Of a DNA stretch of 35,920 nt, positions 4,340-26,514 are shown one piece after another. Every line of letters starts with the position of its first letter. Positions within the stretch are counted from its first letter, which is position 1. The stretch is from a virus. Taxonomy: Duplodnaviria; Heunggongvirae; Uroviricota; Caudoviricetes. The position numbers and the translations under genes are program-made. The stretch lies in the IMG/VR virus record IMGVR_UViG_2529293138_000008, positions 1 to 35,920 of that record. One strand, written 5' to 3'. The notes below the pieces were generated by a model. That model worked only from the letters and a program-made list of their open reading frames with translations, made no database searches and was not told the origin of the DNA.

Positions 4340-4729
4340 ATGATTGACGCTCATGACTTCACAAGATGGGTGCGCACACAGGACACCCGTCTGGCTCCCG
4401 TTCTCCAAGGATTATTTGATCTTTACATCCGTGGTCGTGACAACAGAGCACGCACTACAAAACCGGAGAATGTGGATACCCTTTATTTCACCGTAGACGA
4501 CTGCTACCGCGTGGACTTCACACCACACGGACTGGCGTTGCACTGCCTGACACCGCACGGCGAATCACTGCTGGCATATTACGACTCCCCGGCCTCCGTA
4601 TTTGCGGCAATGCTGGCGCATCGCACTGCTGGCGGGTGTGCCTCGCTGAGTGAATACACCGCTGAATTTAACCGCCTTTCCACCATCTTCTTGCAGGAGT
4701 GGCAGCGCGTGACGGGATACCAGCCATGA
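4340..4729 (+). CDS. Hypothetical early protein
   Basis: 129-aa ORF immediately upstream of the replication gene; its stop overlaps the A start (ATGA). Confidence 0.5.
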   Translation: MIDAHDFTRWVRTQDTRLAPVLQGLFDLYIRGRDNRARTTKPENVDTLYFTVDDCYRVDFTPHGLALHCLTPHGESLLAYYDSPASVFAAMLAHRTAGGCASLSEYTAEFNRLSTIFLQEWQRVTGYQP

Positions 4730-7566
4730 GTGAGTTTGCATGGAGCTGGAATGAACCACGACCAGCCATTGATCCGGCCAGATTTACGGAGCACAGGCAG
4801 GAAACTGAAACCGACCTGCAACGCGCCATCCGTTACTACCTTGAGGCAGACAAAAAGGCTCTGGAAGAACAGGAAGCGAAGGAGGAAGCCTTTTTCGCAC
4901 AATCCACCGTGGGTAAAAAACTCATGGCATCCCTTGAGGAAGCCGGACAGCGTGAAAAGCTGGCACAAAGCATCATCAGCAAGCGTCAGGCAACAGAACA
5001 AGACCCGGTGGCCCGTGCTTTTGCCACACTGAAGGTGCTTCCCGTTTATCTGCGTGAACCTCTGAGCCGCCACCTCTCTTTCCTGCGCAAAAAACAGGAA
5101 GCCGATCGCCAGAAAGGCAAAAAGAGCTGGCAGGCTGAACGCTACGCGCGCGGAACCCTGCGCAAAATATTCGAACGTCTGGACCGCACCGATCACCGCT
5201 GGCTGACACCGGGTTATCGCTCCCTTGCCGGACGCGAACGCCTGGACGATTTGCTTTACCTGCCGCAGCTCAACAAACACCAGATACAGACGCTGGCCAC
5301 CATGACGGCGGCGATGTTCAGCAGCACCTTCGAAAAACTCTGCGATGGCTTTGGCGCGACTGATGGCGAACTGACCATGGATGTAACGCTGAAGGCGTAT
5401 CAGATGCTGGCCCGCATGGCGTTACACCTGCACGCCATGCCTCCACATTATGACGCACTGACAACAGACAAAGACCGGAGGAACGAACCGGACACGGAGC
5501 TGCTGCCGGGCGCAATCCTTCGCCTGACCTGTGCGGAATGGTGGAAACGCAAACTGTGGCTGTTACGTTGCGAGTGGAGAGAAGAACAACTCCGCGCCGC
5601 CTGTCTGGTTTCCAGAAAAACATCACCCTATCTGAGCCAGGACGCGTTAAGCGAGTTTCGCGCACAGCGCGAGAAAACACGCGATTTCCTGAAAAGTTTC
5701 ATGCTGGAAAATGAAGACGGGTTCACGATTGATCTCGAGACAGTGTATTACGCGGGAGTAAGTAACCCGGTTCACCGTAAGGCAGAAATGATGGCCACCA
5801 TGAAGGGACTGGAACTTCTGGCCGAAGCCCGTGGCGACAGAGCGGTGTTTCTGACTGTCACCTGCCCGTCAAAATACCACGCAACAACGGAGAACGGTCA
5901 TCCGAACCCCAAATGGAACGGGGCCACCATGCGCGACTCCAGCGATTACCTGGTTAACACGTTTTTTGCGGCGGTCCGCAAGAAACTGAACCGCGACGGC
6001 CTGCGCTGGTATGGCATCCGCACGGTGGAGCCTCACCATGACGGCACCGTGCACTGGCATATGATGGTCTTTGCTCATCCGGAAGAAATCGACACCATTG
6101 TGTCCCACACCCGCGATATTGCCATTCAGGAAGATTGTCACGAGCTGGGCGATGATATTACTCCGCGCTTTAAGGCGGAGTATGTCGACGGCTCAAAAGG
6201 CACGCCAACCAGCTACATCGCCACCTACATCGGAAAAAACCTGGACAGCCGCGCCGTGGATGGCATCGACCCGAAAACAGGCAAACCACGCGTTGACCAC
6301 GAAACCGGAAAATCAATGGCGGAGAGCGTGGAGCGCGCCATCGGCTGGGCGCGCCTTCACCGGGTCCGCCAGTTCCAGTTCTTTGGCATCCCCTCCCGTC
6401 AGGTGTGGCGTGAACTGCGCCGCCTTGCCAGCCAGATGGCACGCAACCCGGAAGGCCCGCAACGGCTGAAGGACGACGCAATGGATGCGGTACTCGCTGC
6501 CGCTGATGCCGGGTGTTTTGCCTCCTACATTGAAAAACAGGGTGGCGTACTTGTTCCACGCAAGGACTACCTGATTCGCACCGCCTACGACCTCGCAGAT
6601 GAGCTGAACGATTACGGCGAACAGAGCGTACAGATTTACGGGATCTGGTCACCACTCATCGGGGAATCCTCCCGTGTGTGCACGCACCCGGATAACTGGA
6701 AGCTGGTAAGACGTAAACCGGAAGCGGAAGACAGCGCCCGCGAAAATGGTTTTGACCTTCAGGGCGGCCCTGCCGCCCCTTGGACTCGTGGCAATAACTG
6801 TCCCCGTGTACAGGAAACGGACAACAACGGGACAGAACAGCCGGAAGAACGGCCAGCACCGTGGCCGCAGCTCCCTGACGGCGTTGAAGTAAACGAATGG
6901 ATGCGCTCACTGAAACGGCACGAACGCCGGGCGCTGATGCGTTCGCTTCGTGACAAACAGGCAAAAAACAGCAGTGATGAAATGCAGAGCTGGACACAGA
7001 GCCGCAAACAGCAGCGGCCTTTGCCTGATAACCACGAGTTACTCGCTAAAGAATGGCGGGAGTCTGCCGAATCTCTCGGCCTGCATATCGGTGAACAGCA
7101 GATGCAGCACCTGTTACGGGGCGGCAGCCTGTACGTTGACGGCAGCATCATTGCACCGCAGGGATATGAAATTGTACGCAAACCGGATACCCGCCCGGAC
7201 AGCCGGATCACGCAGCTCTGGCAACGCCTGAGCCGTAATCACGGCGTAAGCAGCACGGAGATCCGCCATAACCCGGTCGCCAGCTATCTGGAACAACTAG
7301 GGGCATCAGCCCCTGAAGCCGCCGCACGCCTGGCATCCACACTTCAGCAGAACCAGAACACCATGAAAACACCCGTTACCGTACTTTCTGACATGCTGCG
7401 CGCTATCCGTGACGCAGAGCACGCACAGAGAATCAGTGAAACCACTGAACGCGCCCGCCGCAAAGCAGACCTGCTGCGGGGTGGCCTGACCAGTGGAAAC
7501 AAAAAACAGACAGAAACGGGATTCACAAATCCCGTAAATGAGCAAAAGACGCGCCGCGATATATGA
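4726..7566 (+). CDS. A: Rolling-circle replication initiation protein (P2 gpA-like)
   Basis: ORF track 4699..7566; ATG 4726 chosen for stop-start coupling. Contains a metal-binding HWHMMVFAH motif and an active-site tyrosine region YIATYIGK. Position after the early genes matches P2/186. Longer than P2 A as I recall it. Confidence 0.85.
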   Translation: MSEFAWSWNEPRPAIDPARFTEHRQETETDLQRAIRYYLEADKKALEEQEAKEEAFFAQSTVGKKLMASLEEAGQREKLAQSIISKRQATEQDPVARAFATLKVLPVYLREPLSRHLSFLRKKQEADRQKGKKSWQAERYARGTLRKIFERLDRTDHRWLTPGYRSLAGRERLDDLLYLPQLNKHQIQTLATMTAAMFSSTFEKLCDGFGATDGELTMDVTLKAYQMLARMALHLHAMPPHYDALTTDKDRRNEPDTELLPGAILRLTCAEWWKRKLWLLRCEWREEQLRAACLVSRKTSPYLSQDALSEFRAQREKTRDFLKSFMLENEDGFTIDLETVYYAGVSNPVHRKAEMMATMKGLELLAEARGDRAVFLTVTCPSKYHATTENGHPNPKWNGATMRDSSDYLVNTFFAAVRKKLNRDGLRWYGIRTVEPHHDGTVHWHMMVFAHPEEIDTIVSHTRDIAIQEDCHELGDDITPRFKAEYVDGSKGTPTSYIATYIGKNLDSRAVDGIDPKTGKPRVDHETGKSMAESVERAIGWARLHRVRQFQFFGIPSRQVWRELRRLASQMARNPEGPQRLKDDAMDAVLAAADAGCFASYIEKQGGVLVPRKDYLIRTAYDLADELNDYGEQSVQIYGIWSPLIGESSRVCTHPDNWKLVRRKPEAEDSARENGFDLQGGPAAPWTRGNNCPRVQETDNNGTEQPEERPAPWPQLPDGVEVNEWMRSLKRHERRALMRSLRDKQAKNSSDEMQSWTQSRKQQRPLPDNHELLAKEWRESAESLGLHIGEQQMQHLLRGGSLYVDGSIIAPQGYEIVRKPDTRPDSRITQLWQRLSRNHGVSSTEIRHNPVASYLEQLGASAPEAAARLASTLQQNQNTMKTPVTVLSDMLRAIRDAEHAQRISETTERARRKADLLRGGLTSGNKKQTETGFTNPVNEQKTRRDI
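7516..7535. repeat. 20-bp palindrome acgggatt-caca-aatcccgt (copy 1, inside 3' end of A)
   Basis: Read directly: 8-bp inverted arms with 4-bp spacer; conserved flanks aaacggg...cccgtaaa shared with copy 2. Confidence 0.6.
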
Positions 7567-7588
7567 AGCGCGCACAAAACAGGCAAAA

Positions 7589-7608
7589 ACGGGATTTCAG
7601 AATCCCGT
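7589..7608. repeat. 20-bp palindrome acgggatt-tcag-aatcccgt (copy 2, upstream of parM-like gene); candidate centromere or operator
   Basis: Same arms as copy 1, about 73 bp away centre to centre; lies in the 76-bp gap between A and the ParM-like gene. Confidence 0.6.
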
Positions 7609-7642
7609 AAACGATTAATTAATCAACACAAGGAAAATCGAC

Positions 7643-8602
7643 ATGAAAATTTGTATCGACGACGGCTCCACCAACATCAAGCTGGCATGGACTGAGAACG
7701 GCGAACGCCGCAACGCCATCAGCCCGAACAGCTTCAAGTCGGAATGGTCTGCGCCGTTCGGTGGCACGACGCCTGCAAACTACATGCTTGATGGCGTGCG
7801 CTATGGTTTTGATCCGGTCAGCGATCGCTTTGTCCAGACGACCGACACGCAATATCAGTACAGCGATGTGAATGTCATTGCCATACATCACGCACTGCTC
7901 AAATCAGGCATCACACCACAGGAAGTGGATGTGGTTGTCACCCTGCCACTGAGCGAGTATTTCGACACAAACGCCCAGCCGGATATGACCAACATCAACC
8001 GCAAAAAAGCGAACGTTATGCGACCGGTGGAATACCAGAACGGCGAAGCATTCACTATCCGTAATGTACGGGTTATGCCTGAATCCATTCCGGCTGGCTT
8101 TAAAGCACTGGCTGACATGAGTCCGTTTGAATCCCTGCTGATTGTGGATTTGGGCGGAACCACGCTGGATGTGGCAAAGGTTCAGGGACAACTGGCAGGT
8201 ATCAGCCAGGTGTTTTGCGATCCACACGTAGGCGTTTCACTGATGACCGATGCAGTGCTGTCGGTGATGGCCACCAACGGTATGCGTACCAGCCACCACA
8301 TCGCCAATACCATTATCGAACATCGCCACGATGAAACCTGGCTGCGCCAGCACATCCACAATGACGCGCATTACGCCAGCCTGATGGCGGTTATTAGTGA
8401 AAAGGAAGAAACACTGAAACAACGCGTGATCCGTGCGCTGGCGGGTTTTTCGGGTTACGGGCGGGTGATGGTTGTCGGTGGCGGGGCGGAGATTGTGGCA
8501 CCCGCTATCCGCGAAGCCTGCGGAGTTAATGCGACTTTCATCGCGGACGGGGTGCCACAGTTTGCTCTGGTTAATGGGCTGTACGCAATGGACAAGGAGT
8601 AA
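7643..8602 (+). CDS. parM: ParM/StbA-like actin-type segregation ATPase
   Basis: N-terminus MKICIDDGSTNIKLAW matches plasmid R1 ParM (MLVFIDDGSTNIKLQW, from memory). Further matches recalled: ISPNSFK, YSDVNVIAIHHALL, VMPESIPAG, DLGGTTLD, GGGAE. Length 319 aa, same as ParM. Confidence 0.8.
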   Translation: MKICIDDGSTNIKLAWTENGERRNAISPNSFKSEWSAPFGGTTPANYMLDGVRYGFDPVSDRFVQTTDTQYQYSDVNVIAIHHALLKSGITPQEVDVVVTLPLSEYFDTNAQPDMTNINRKKANVMRPVEYQNGEAFTIRNVRVMPESIPAGFKALADMSPFESLLIVDLGGTTLDVAKVQGQLAGISQVFCDPHVGVSLMTDAVLSVMATNGMRTSHHIANTIIEHRHDETWLRQHIHNDAHYASLMAVISEKEETLKQRVIRALAGFSGYGRVMVVGGGAEIVAPAIREACGVNATFIADGVPQFALVNGLYAMDKE

Positions 8603-8606
8603 ACCA

Positions 8607-8918
8607 ATGACGACACCAACCAGACGAATAAGTTTCTATCTGAAGCCCGCCGCCGTCAAGAACGAAGGCGAAGCATGCGCCTGGCTGGACAGCCTTACAC
8701 CAGAAGCCCGTAAAAACGGCCAACGCGTGGCTTTTCTGGCCGGGCTGGCGCTTCTGAAAATGAATCCGGCAGAGGCTTACCGACTGGCAGCATGGGCTGA
8801 CGATGAGGCGTTATCAGTGAGACAAACCAGGACAGAACGCCCCCTGTCACAGCCAGTACCAACCGCACAGATAACCAGTCAGATGGCCGGAAATATCAGG
8901 GCGTTATTTCCTGAATAA
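8607..8918 (+). CDS. ParR-like centromere-binding adaptor (putative)
   Basis: ORF track 8472..8918 trimmed to ATG 8607, which follows a ggag SD 4 bp after the parM stop. About 103 aa. ISFYLKP...LDSLTPEAR...AFLAGLALL...ALFPE parallels R1 ParR (IAFKLNP...DSIPQGERS...ALTAGLALY...SLFPKE, from memory). Confidence 0.5.
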   Translation: MTTPTRRISFYLKPAAVKNEGEACAWLDSLTPEARKNGQRVAFLAGLALLKMNPAEAYRLAAWADDEALSVRQTRTERPLSQPVPTAQITSQMAGNIRALFPE

Positions 8919-8981
8919 CACAACGTCAGGGCGAGTTCGCCCTGATCTCCATCTCAGAACATAAACAAGAAGAGCGACTTA

Positions 8982-9365
8982 ATGAGCAAAATCAACTATC
9001 AGGCATTACGTGAACGTTATTCACCTGCACCAGTACCAAAATGCCCTATTTGCGGCGAAGAAATGTCAATTCAGCGAATATCTGGATCACAGGTTGTTTA
9101 TGCCTGCTCCGGTTATGGTGATGATGGAGATTTCAAAATTGGTCGAACTCTTGCCGACGAACATTATGAAAAATCACGCGTAACAGTGTTGGATGTCGGG
9201 GATCCTGAAGTATTGGCGCTACTTGATTGGCTGGAAACCAAAGACAACCGAATCGCTGAACTGGAGAAAATCGCCACTGACTATGCACTTAAATTCCAGA
9301 AAGCACAGGACGCATTAAAGTACGCCGCTTTGCTGCATAGCAGGACAGCGCAGCTACAAGACTAA
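8982..9365 (+). CDS. Hypothetical protein with N-terminal zinc-ribbon-like motif (cargo)
   Basis: 127 aa; CPICG ... C...C near the N-terminus, C-terminal predicted helical. Occupies the P2 tin-like position. Confidence 0.5.
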   Translation: MSKINYQALRERYSPAPVPKCPICGEEMSIQRISGSQVVYACSGYGDDGDFKIGRTLADEHYEKSRVTVLDVGDPEVLALLDWLETKDNRIAELEKIATDYALKFQKAQDALKYAALLHSRTAQLQD

Positions 9366-9393
9366 CTTAAAGCGGAAGATTAATACATGGTGA

Positions 9394-9420
9394 GTCGGGA
9401 TAATTTGTTTTTATCCCGAC
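9394..9420. other. Hairpin between convergent cargo genes (possible terminator)
   Basis: gtcgggata-N9-tatcccgac stem-loop, read directly. No clean U-run on either strand, so terminator function is uncertain. Confidence 0.3.
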
Positions 9421-9455
9421 AAATAAACAAAAAAGTGGACTATCTCTGTAGTATC

Positions 9456-9986
9456 TTATTCAGCATCGTCTCGTGCAGTCTGTGCATACGTCACAACAAC
9501 GCCCAATGCATTAGTTTTCTTTTCAACATAGATAATATTGTCATATTCATAGTTACCATACGGATAGCAAATAAGAATATTTTTATGCAGATCGGGATCA
9601 TCAACAAACGCTCCGGAACAGCTTCTTGAACTACCGGATGTATACTCATACGGTGCAACATATGATGATGTTACTCCTGGTAAAAAATAAGTCACCATCA
9701 TAAGAGGGATAATCAGGAATATCCCTGTAAGAATGCAAGAGCCAGCATAAACCTTCAGGTATTCCGACAGTCCTTTCCAGCCACTTTGCTTCACTACCCC
9801 CCTCTTCACCAGAAACAAGGAGAAGAAAAAGGACATACCCATACTACACAAGATGTAATAATTGGATATACGCGAATTAAGATATGTAATCCTGTAGATA
9901 TCTGCCCTCCACCAGTAAAAGAGGAAAATAATCCCTAGCACTGAAACAGTCATGCAAATCAAATAAGGATATGAATCTTTCTTCAT
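9456..9986 (-). CDS. AT-rich integral membrane protein (about 3 TM helices plus C-terminal soluble domain), cargo
   Basis: 176 aa. Hydrophobic segments LICMTVSVLGIIFLFYWW, YILCSMGMSFFFSLFLV, AGSCILTGIFLIIPLMMVTYFL. Visibly lower GC than flanking phage core. Same position and orientation as P2 old (next to cos, minus strand). Confidence 0.55.
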   Translation of the reverse strand: MKKDSYPYLICMTVSVLGIIFLFYWWRADIYRITYLNSRISNYYILCSMGMSFFFSLFLVKRGVVKQSGWKGLSEYLKVYAGSCILTGIFLIIPLMMVTYFLPGVTSSYVAPYEYTSGSSRSCSGAFVDDPDLHKNILICYPYGNYEYDNIIYVEKKTNALGVVVTYAQTARDDAE

Positions 9987-10463
9987 GTCTTGCGCTCATT
10001 AAAATTTCCCTGCTACGAACAAATTTACCATCCGTTTTTTGCGCAGAAAACAGCACGATGCACACTGCACGATAGTGCACAAATTTGCACAATTTTTTTG
10101 AACGACTTTTTACCCTTCCGGCCCGCATGGCGGCTGGATCCGTCAAGGATCCGTGCGTGCACAAAAAAACGCGTTTTTCTGCGCGCAGGTGACGGGGGAA
10201 CAGCCCGCGTTTCAGGGGGTAAATAGCATTCCCTGAGCGATGTCGCAGCGACACAACAGAATGGCTGTATTTCTCACGCTGAGCGTGAAAAAGACGTAAG
10301 GGTTTTTGATTTGATGGGTTGAAAGGTAAGGCCGTCAAAATCGCACTGAGGCGGCGAGAACATACAGTCAACGCGGTGGGATTGCGTAAGAGCCTGACCG
10401 TCGATGGTGGCGATAAACTGGAAGGCGTCGTGAAATTATCTGACTGATACAGGAACTGGAGAG

Positions 10464-10488
10464 TCGGGGCATAAATTTTTTATGCCCC
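10464..10488. other. Hairpin just downstream of portal gene (possible terminator or cos-associated structure)
   Basis: cggggcataaa-ttt-tttatgccccg, read directly. Confidence 0.3.
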
Positions 10489-10515
10489 GGCGAAGCAGCA
10501 GGCAAGCGAAGCGCG

Positions 10516-26358: not shown

Positions 26359-26514
26359 GATAATCTCCTTAATTATTATTTCAGACCATACATGTTATAA
26401 GGTTAAGAGATTATAAAATCCTGTTATTTGTTATTCAAAAACAATTTTCTAAGAAGGACATACAACAGCAAGTCGTCAGTCACCTTCATCAGGACATTGG
26501 CGACATACGTTAAA

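Follow-up and report, generated by a model that had tools for sequence, protein, structure and literature searches.

A putative two-unit parC in front of the parM-parR cassette of a P2-like Escherichia coli prophage

Does a partition cassette that is carried by an integrating phage come with a centromere of its own, and if so, where does this site lie? The question is raised by a locus in the Caudoviricetes record IMGVR_UViG_2529293138_000008 (positions 1 to 35,920; this whole stretch of 35,920 bp is referred to as the window), in which the replication gene A of a P2-like prophage is directly followed by the genes for the actin-like partition protein ParM and its adaptor ParR. ParMRC is the textbook actin-like DNA segregation system and it has been studied almost solely on plasmids. 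Two copies of a 20-bp palindrome flank the stop codon of gene A, and an earlier note made from the sequence had proposed them as a candidate centromere or operator, at the place where a parC centromere/promoter would be expected. Based on sequence comparisons, we consider it probable, with moderate confidence, that the two 20-bp units are putative parC cis sites of the prophage's own type II parM-parR cassette, with ParR as their binder.

The pattern ACGGGATT-N4-AATCCCGT has two exact matches and no others in the window, in agreement with the two copies about 73 bp apart that the earlier note had described. Site 1 (7516-7535) reads ACGGGATTCACAAATCCCGT, i.e., ACGGGATT-CACA-AATCCCGT with the core GGGATT-N4-AATCCC, and is situated within the last codons of gene A, where it codes for T-G-F-T-N-P-V. 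Site 2 (7589-7608) reads ACGGGATTTCAGAATCCCGT, i.e., ACGGGATT-TCAG-AATCCCGT, and is situated within the 76-bp intergenic gap between A and parM. The positions of the A stop codon (7564-7566) and of the parM ATG (7643) confirm that one copy lies inside the 3' end of A and the other in the gap before parM. Counted from this ATG, the 20-bp units start at -127 and -54, and the GGG triplets of site 1 and site 2 are found at -125 and -52, respectively. If up to three mismatches are allowed, the window contains three matches compared with 0.17 expected, a number reached by none of 100 shuffles; the third match is a weak one at 26405. The conserved flanks that had been noticed earlier turned out to be part of a 42-nt direct repeat (7500-7541 and 7573-7614, 81% identical), in which the palindromes are embedded.

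Within each unit the centres of the half-sites GGGATT and AATCCC are 10 bp apart and therefore lie on the same face of the helix. The units are spaced by 73 bp from start to start, corresponding to about seven helical turns, and are therefore in phase, which would allow ParR on the two units to bridge the 53-bp spacer between them or to wrap it. This spacer (7536-7588) holds the stop codon of gene A and a weak GC-rich imperfect inverted repeat, and its sequence differs between lineages and is not conserved. With regard to the contrast that had been drawn between inverted repeats at this locus and direct repeats in R1 parC, the two units form a direct repeat with each other, but they number only two, are non-contiguous, and each has internal dyad symmetry. 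The motif GGGA-N8-TCCC has no further occurrence near regulatory regions of the phage, neither the C-cox switch region nor any other part of the phage contains a dyad resembling the sites, and extra half-sites of the form AAACGGGATT (at most two mismatches) are not enriched in the window (41 found and 36 expected). Five weak AAACGGGATT matches with two mismatches each, clustered within 260 bp on the minus strand inside the integrase gene (1293-1553), show no dyad and were judged to be chance matches.

The evidence that mainly carries the assignment as parC comes from diverged prophages. The relatives useful for comparison were obtained from protein look-ups only: the ParM scan of genome contigs returned three near-identical loci only, the IMG/VR scans returned E. 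coli-type loci only, and the metagenome scan returned E. coli-type loci together with distant plasmid-type loci with classical iterons. One further relative with a ParM of 81% identity (L177) begins inside parM and offers no upstream DNA to compare. P2-like prophages of Plesiomonas (L088), Hafnia (L089, L090), Serratia (L091, L172), and Enterobacter (L170) carry ParM homologues with 54-63% identity at the equivalent place, with gene A immediately upstream and the portal gene downstream, and in the diverged phages the sites always stand in front of a ParM/ParR pair.

Site 1 and site 2 read GGGATTCACAAATCCC and GGGATTTCAGAATCCC in the window, with a spacing of 73 bp, and GCGGGATTCATGAATCCCAA and ACGGGATTTGAAAATCCCAT, again spaced by 73 bp, in L182, whose ParM is 94% and whose ParR is 73% identical. 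Hafnia L089 and Plesiomonas L088, both with a ParM of 63% identity, have TGGGATTGAGGAAACCCA and CGGGTTCATTAAATCCCA at 73 bp and GCGGGACAACAAAAACCCGA and GCGGGACAACACTAACCCAC at 72 bp, respectively. The GGG-N10-CCC pairs are thereby placed at -125/-52 from the parM ATG in the window, at -131/-59 in Plesiomonas L088 and at -128/-55 in Hafnia L089. In L182 the GGGATT/AATCCC cores are perfect, and the loops, the outer bases and the spacer are unlike those of the window. Plesiomonas site 1 overlaps the 3' end of A, as it does in the window; in Hafnia L089 an ORF of 167 aa is present between A and parM and site 1 lies inside this ORF, so that the element is linked to parMR instead of gene A. When the 400 nt upstream of parM in Plesiomonas or Hafnia were shuffled 200,000 times, a proximal site with a partner 71-75 bp upstream never arose, and even the proximal site arose in only 0.3%. 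Apart from a ATTAATCAA box next to parM, the sequences that separate and surround the sites do not align across lineages. What is conserved are the outer GGG and CCC triplets, partly the adjoining A/T, the one-turn distance between the triplets and the seven-turn distance between the units; the GGGA core in the sites is common to all five lineages. As this two-site layout is kept beside parM in diverged prophages and the hairpin is not, a protein-binding site of the par module is favoured over an attenuator or terminator, in support of the earlier proposal; its promoter part is not supported by any recognisable sigma-70 consensus.

The 42-nt repeat might alternatively be a non-functional relic, namely a duplicated 3' end of gene A that arose when the parMR module was joined to A, an explanation which we regard as very unlikely. 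It is suggested by the direct orientation of the repeat, by copy 2 (7573-7614), which in the +1 frame relative to A translates to KQAKTGFQNPVND followed by a stop, in parallel to the A C-terminus KQTETGFTNPVNE..., and by the restriction of the C-terminal 150 aa of A to phages with parMR. A relic, however, would be expected to decay independently in each lineage, yet four lineages keep the spacing and the GGG/CCC register with unalignable flanks, and in one lineage site 1 is located in a different gene. The KQAKTGFQNPVND reading of copy 2 as such follows from the direct repeat and is possibly a trace of how the junction originated.

The stretch from A through parM to parR is 94-96% identical to Escherichia phage P88, to other Xuanwuvirus (P2-like Peduoviridae) and to Citrobacter phage Shae_phiSM, and 1351 of the 5426 complete E. 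coli genomes contain it, nearly always at a chromosomal location. In the P88 record no repeat or regulatory feature is annotated at this position. The earlier note had named wide dispersal of the palindrome as the finding that would speak against its proposal, and such dispersal was not observed. In a BLAST search at E ≤ 10 against the 5426 E. coli genomes, the 42-nt unit was found in 1303 genomes, all of them carriers of the prophage, with a median of 2 and a maximum of 6 places per genome (2789 chromosomal vs. 4 plasmid places), and it was absent from the 4123 genomes without the prophage. The palindrome is thus almost certainly no dispersed REP-like genomic repeat: this reading has the palindromic look and nothing further in its favour, and with about two copies per prophage in carriers, as in the window, it is refuted by the search.

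Another possibility is that the palindromes act as RNA hairpins in a transcript reading through from A into parM, serving RNase processing or stability, translational coupling or attenuation. Each unit of the E. coli type folds with -10.7 kcal/mol, the 181-nt region folds better than 200 of 200 shuffles (z = -4.3), and the common CCC to CCT variant of site 2 retains a G-U pair on the plus strand. The folding energy is, however, only about -4.6 kcal/mol per unit in Hafnia and Plesiomonas (3-4 pairs, 10-nt loop), where the stem is lost while the GGG/CCC positions stay. A U-tract follows neither hairpin on the plus strand, and a search of Rfam 15 with positions 7300-7800 on both strands returned nothing at E ≤ 1. 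Among 55-76 E. coli-type haplotypes stem-breaking single changes were observed (GGGATT to GGGACT in site 1, CCC to CCT in site 2) and no compensatory pairs; the frequent GGGACT change breaks a pair on the plus strand and is uncompensated. A role as RNA hairpins is therefore quite unlikely, and the transcriptional attenuator, listed in the earlier note as an alternative, is disfavoured because the two-site arrangement is kept beside parM in diverged prophages and the hairpin is not. Within E. coli, the loops are the most diverse part (0.162) and the 24 positions of the cores the least (0.034), and diversity reaches 0.052 in the spacer and 0.055-0.073 at third codon positions. This pattern of conservation suits protein binding to double-stranded DNA better than a function as RNA.

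On the minus strand both E. coli hairpins are called terminator-like, with the T-rich tails TTTTTGCCTGT and TTCTGTCTGT following them, and they could accordingly be tandem intrinsic terminators of leftward transcription that shield gene A from antisense transcripts. Yet the nearest minus-strand gene (9456-9986) is 1.8 kb away and none ends nearby, the CCT variant of site 2 creates an A-C mismatch on the minus strand, and no terminator-like sites are present at the homologous positions of Plesiomonas L088 and Hafnia L089 on either strand. Due to this absence from the homologous sites of diverged relatives, termination was rejected as the conserved function and is highly improbable as an explanation of the element. 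The hairpin and the minus-strand terminator look are confined to the E. coli lineage because neither the inner stem nor the DNA around the sites is kept in the relatives.

The earlier identification of ParM-like and ParR-like genes downstream of the sites was borne out by profile and structure database matches. parM (stbA; 7643-8602, plus strand) encodes an actin-like partition ATPase of 319 aa that matches Pfam StbA_N (6.6e-82), the ParM C-terminal domain PF21523 (6.4e-69), PHROG 691 (partition protein) and R1 ParM in the PDB (1MWK, 5.9e-94). parR (stbB; 8607-8918, plus strand) encodes a 103-aa centromere-binding adaptor matching Pfam Plasmid_stab_B (7.6e-24). A profile built from phage and plasmid ParRs matches 2JD3, the StbB/ParR of pB171, with E 1.8e-16 over positions 4-103, the N-terminal strand included; an AlphaFold2 monomer model of ParR is of low confidence (pLDDT 52) and adds nothing to the fold assignment. 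The N-terminal strand reads TRRISFYLKP in E. coli, TRRISFYLNP in Plesiomonas, TRRVSFYLKP in Hafnia, and NRKISFYLKP in Serratia and Enterobacter. Among the E. coli-type prophages ParR identity falls to 52% while ParM stays at ≥90%, TRRISFYLKP is unchanged across all E. coli ParR variants, and the same palindromes precede both main E. coli ParR types (TPEARKSGQRVA and PASERSRAQRAA). ParR varies mostly at residues 30-40 and in the C-terminal linker, with no change in its first 20 residues or in the tail NI(R/Q)xLFPE at its C-terminus.

A different protein might instead bind the sites and regulate the A-parM junction, e.g., A through its C-terminal domain, some other early protein of the phage, or a factor of the host. 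Site 1 overlaps the coding end of A in E. coli and in Plesiomonas, and the 16-nt 5' flank in A is highly conserved (diversity 0.013). Against such a binder, the Hafnia L089 sites are parted from A by another gene and keep their distance to parM, and the C-cox switch region and the rest of the phage are without a similar dyad. Moreover, the site sequences diverge between lineages in step with ParR, the GGGA core tracking the conserved N-terminal strand of ParR. We consider a binder other than ParR unlikely.

If ParR is the binder, the following model would apply. ParR dimers would occupy GGGATT and AATCCC in each unit, the geometry of which is that expected of two ribbon-helix-helix ParR dimers placed side by side as a dimer of dimers. 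The two loaded units would cooperate across the 53-bp spacer, and ParM filaments would attach to the resulting ParR-DNA complex, which would probably also modulate expression of, or read-through into, parM.

The sequences show the anatomy of the sites and its conservation; ParR as the binder, the stoichiometry of binding, and the outputs in segregation and autoregulation are inferred. Several points weigh against the assignment as parC. The ParRs characterised so far all bind direct repeats (PMC9426499), and only two units are present here compared with ten iterons in R1. Two core positions are highly polymorphic in E. coli, namely GGGAcT in site 1 (heterozygosity 0.41) and AATCCt in site 2 (0.27); the core diversity given above stems almost wholly from these two positions, and their high-frequency polymorphism means that constraint is modest. 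A consensus scan found no sigma-70-like site on the plus strand in 7400-7650 or in the homologous regions of Plesiomonas L088 and Hafnia L089, so that an operator role is weak; parMR may be transcribed from the early promoter, by read-through of the early operon via gene A, and a weak or non-consensus parM promoter may likewise be present. Candidate promoters picked by eye, e.g., TTCAGA-N16-ATTAAT overlapping site 2, are weak and were not relied on.

Finally among these points, the Serratia/Enterobacter subgroup (ParM 54-59% identical) deviates from this arrangement in having one large inverted repeat, whose arms of 14-20 bp (GGGAAC...AGAAAAAT; GGGAACGAAATAGAAAAATG) are 26-28 nt apart and are accompanied by a repeated TTTCATGACC. 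In these phages (L091 4880-4980, L172 3880-3980, L170 3883-3950) the inverted repeat is followed by a repeated ATTTCATGACC, 32 bp apart, and the palindrome GCCGTTTAAACGGC, and the left arm has CAGGCAAAAACGGGA in common with site 2 of the window.

The surroundings of the sites are those of a P2-like phage. The window layout comprises integrase, C, cox, early genes, A, parM, parR, and cargo, with portal and terminase on the opposite strand. Gene A (4699-7566, plus strand) encodes a P2-type replication nickase (Pfam Phage_GPA 3.1e-130; PHROG 91), and its translation probably begins further downstream than the GTG at 4699, since the P88 product is annotated as 940 aa. A is 940-955 aa long here and 785-912 aa in the diverged relatives, and its last 150 aa (7114-7563) gave tblastn matches only in 14 Xuanwuvirus-type phage records, all with parMR. 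The ATTAATCAA box mentioned above (7618-7626, plus strand) follows site 2 and precedes the Shine-Dalgarno sequence of parM, some 20 nt ahead of the ATG; it is common to the E. coli, Hafnia L089, and Plesiomonas phages and missing from the Serratia group, and a weak -10 region or a part of the translation-initiation region are possibilities for its role.

Downstream of the cassette, 8 nt past the parR stop and before an Ead/Ea22 gene, a perfect palindrome with an 8-bp stem, TCAGGGCG-AGTT-CGCCCTGA, was observed at 8926-8945; it may lie where the par transcript ends or serve as a stabiliser, and it has no clear U-tract on the plus strand. Variable cargo fills the stretch from parR to the portal gene (8919-10515 in the window; compared with L088, L089, L091, L170, L172, and L178). 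The window has Ead/Ea22 and a phrog_1416 gene there, Hafnia and Plesiomonas have ogr, Serratia has HicAB, Enterobacter a KAP NTPase, and L178 a DUF3800 protein; at this end of P2-like genomes, parMR is thus the neighbour of the variable region.

A search of plasmids for homologous DNA yielded the same prophage inserted in or recorded as plasmids and two chance matches. In one complete E. coli assembly (NZ_CP148288.1, L180) the entire phage from integrase through ogr, with parMR, forms a circular record of 34,461 bp that was deposited as a plasmid; it may represent a genuine episome or the phage in an excised or induced state. A contig of 226 kb labelled Vagococcus sp. (NZ_JBQPOM010000071.1, L086) carries an E. 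coli-type prophage region with a ParM of 97% identity; its occurrence in a Gram-positive genome record probably reflects contamination or a mislabelled assembly.

What would a partition site do in such a phage? The par cassette is already annotated in public records, and no description of the cis site was found in the literature searched on P88, Xuanwuvirus or P2-like phages with ParM/parC. The interest of the site comes mainly from the commonness of the prophage and from the question why an integrating P2-like phage keeps ParMRC beside its replication gene: roughly one in four complete E. coli genomes carries a phage of this family, and relatives occur in Hafnia, Plesiomonas, Serratia, and Enterobacter. 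The roles considered for an integrating phage are segregation of replicating circles, episomal carriage, and incompatibility against plasmids with related par loci. It is possible, although doubtful, that this family carries a working actin-type segregation machine, with a centromere consisting of two dyad 20-bp ParR sites located partly in the end of the upstream gene, and that it uses the machine to separate or position circular replication products or to persist as an episome. If so, phages would use ParMRC outside the classical plasmid prophages and ParR would recognise inverted instead of direct half-sites; if ParR does not bind, the element would be a minor lineage-specific curiosity. 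The candidate centromere of 93 bp offers a handle on the function of the cassette, on its role in an integrating phage, and on the use of inverted half-sites by ParR.

How does the element compare with known systems? The nearest plasmid and phage-plasmid relatives of the phage ParM (46-53% identity; pCFS3246-2, IncL/M p721005-3, phage D6, and the metagenomic loci L238-L262) also have two repeat blocks upstream of parM; identity is 52% for the plasmids L081 and L084, 48% for phage D6 (L083) and 46-49% for the metagenomic loci. In contrast to the prophage element, their blocks consist of many short T/G-rich or (A/T)TCTCA iterons, often around a clear promoter of the TTGAyn-N17-TATAAT type, and GGGATT-N4-AATCCC is found in none of them.

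Inverted half-sites about one helical turn apart that are bound by a dimer of dimers are known from operators of the Arc, MetJ and CopG type. Those are pure transcriptional operators that overlap promoters, whereas the phage sites are without an evident promoter and their proposed partner is a partition adaptor.

Very small centromeres built of 20-bp units have a precedent in the parC sites of pSK41 and pB171 par1: pSK41 ParR binds 20-bp repeats and pB171 ParR needs just two 10-bp repeats (PMC9426499). The repeats in these plasmids are direct and contiguous, whereas the phage units are dyad-symmetric and 53 bp apart. The N-termini of ParR proteins form ribbon-helix-helix dimers, with one dimer per iteron of about 10 bp, and type II parC is situated upstream of parM, either as one continuous array or as two blocks on either side of the promoter, which in the split form is looped and repressed by the centromere (PMC5016525).

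R1 parC differs from the phage element in its two sets of five direct 11-bp iterons (A/C-rich in L082) that flank a clear promoter, compared with two dyad 20-bp units at a distance of 53 bp with no recognisable promoter, of which one is placed inside an upstream coding sequence, and in that the replicon here is an integrating P2-like phage. In both systems, however, the cis site lies directly upstream of parM-parR and consists of two blocks in helical phase, the R1-type iterons in L082 (AAAxAxACCCA) likewise have a CCC core, and the partner proteins are homologous, with R1 ParM matched as given above and ParR assigned to the same Pfam family. By analogy to R1, the ParR-DNA complex of the phage is proposed to capture the growing ends of ParM filaments while lowering par expression. 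As far as can be judged from its sequence, the phage element may thus represent a reduced, dyad-symmetric variant of the split parC design.

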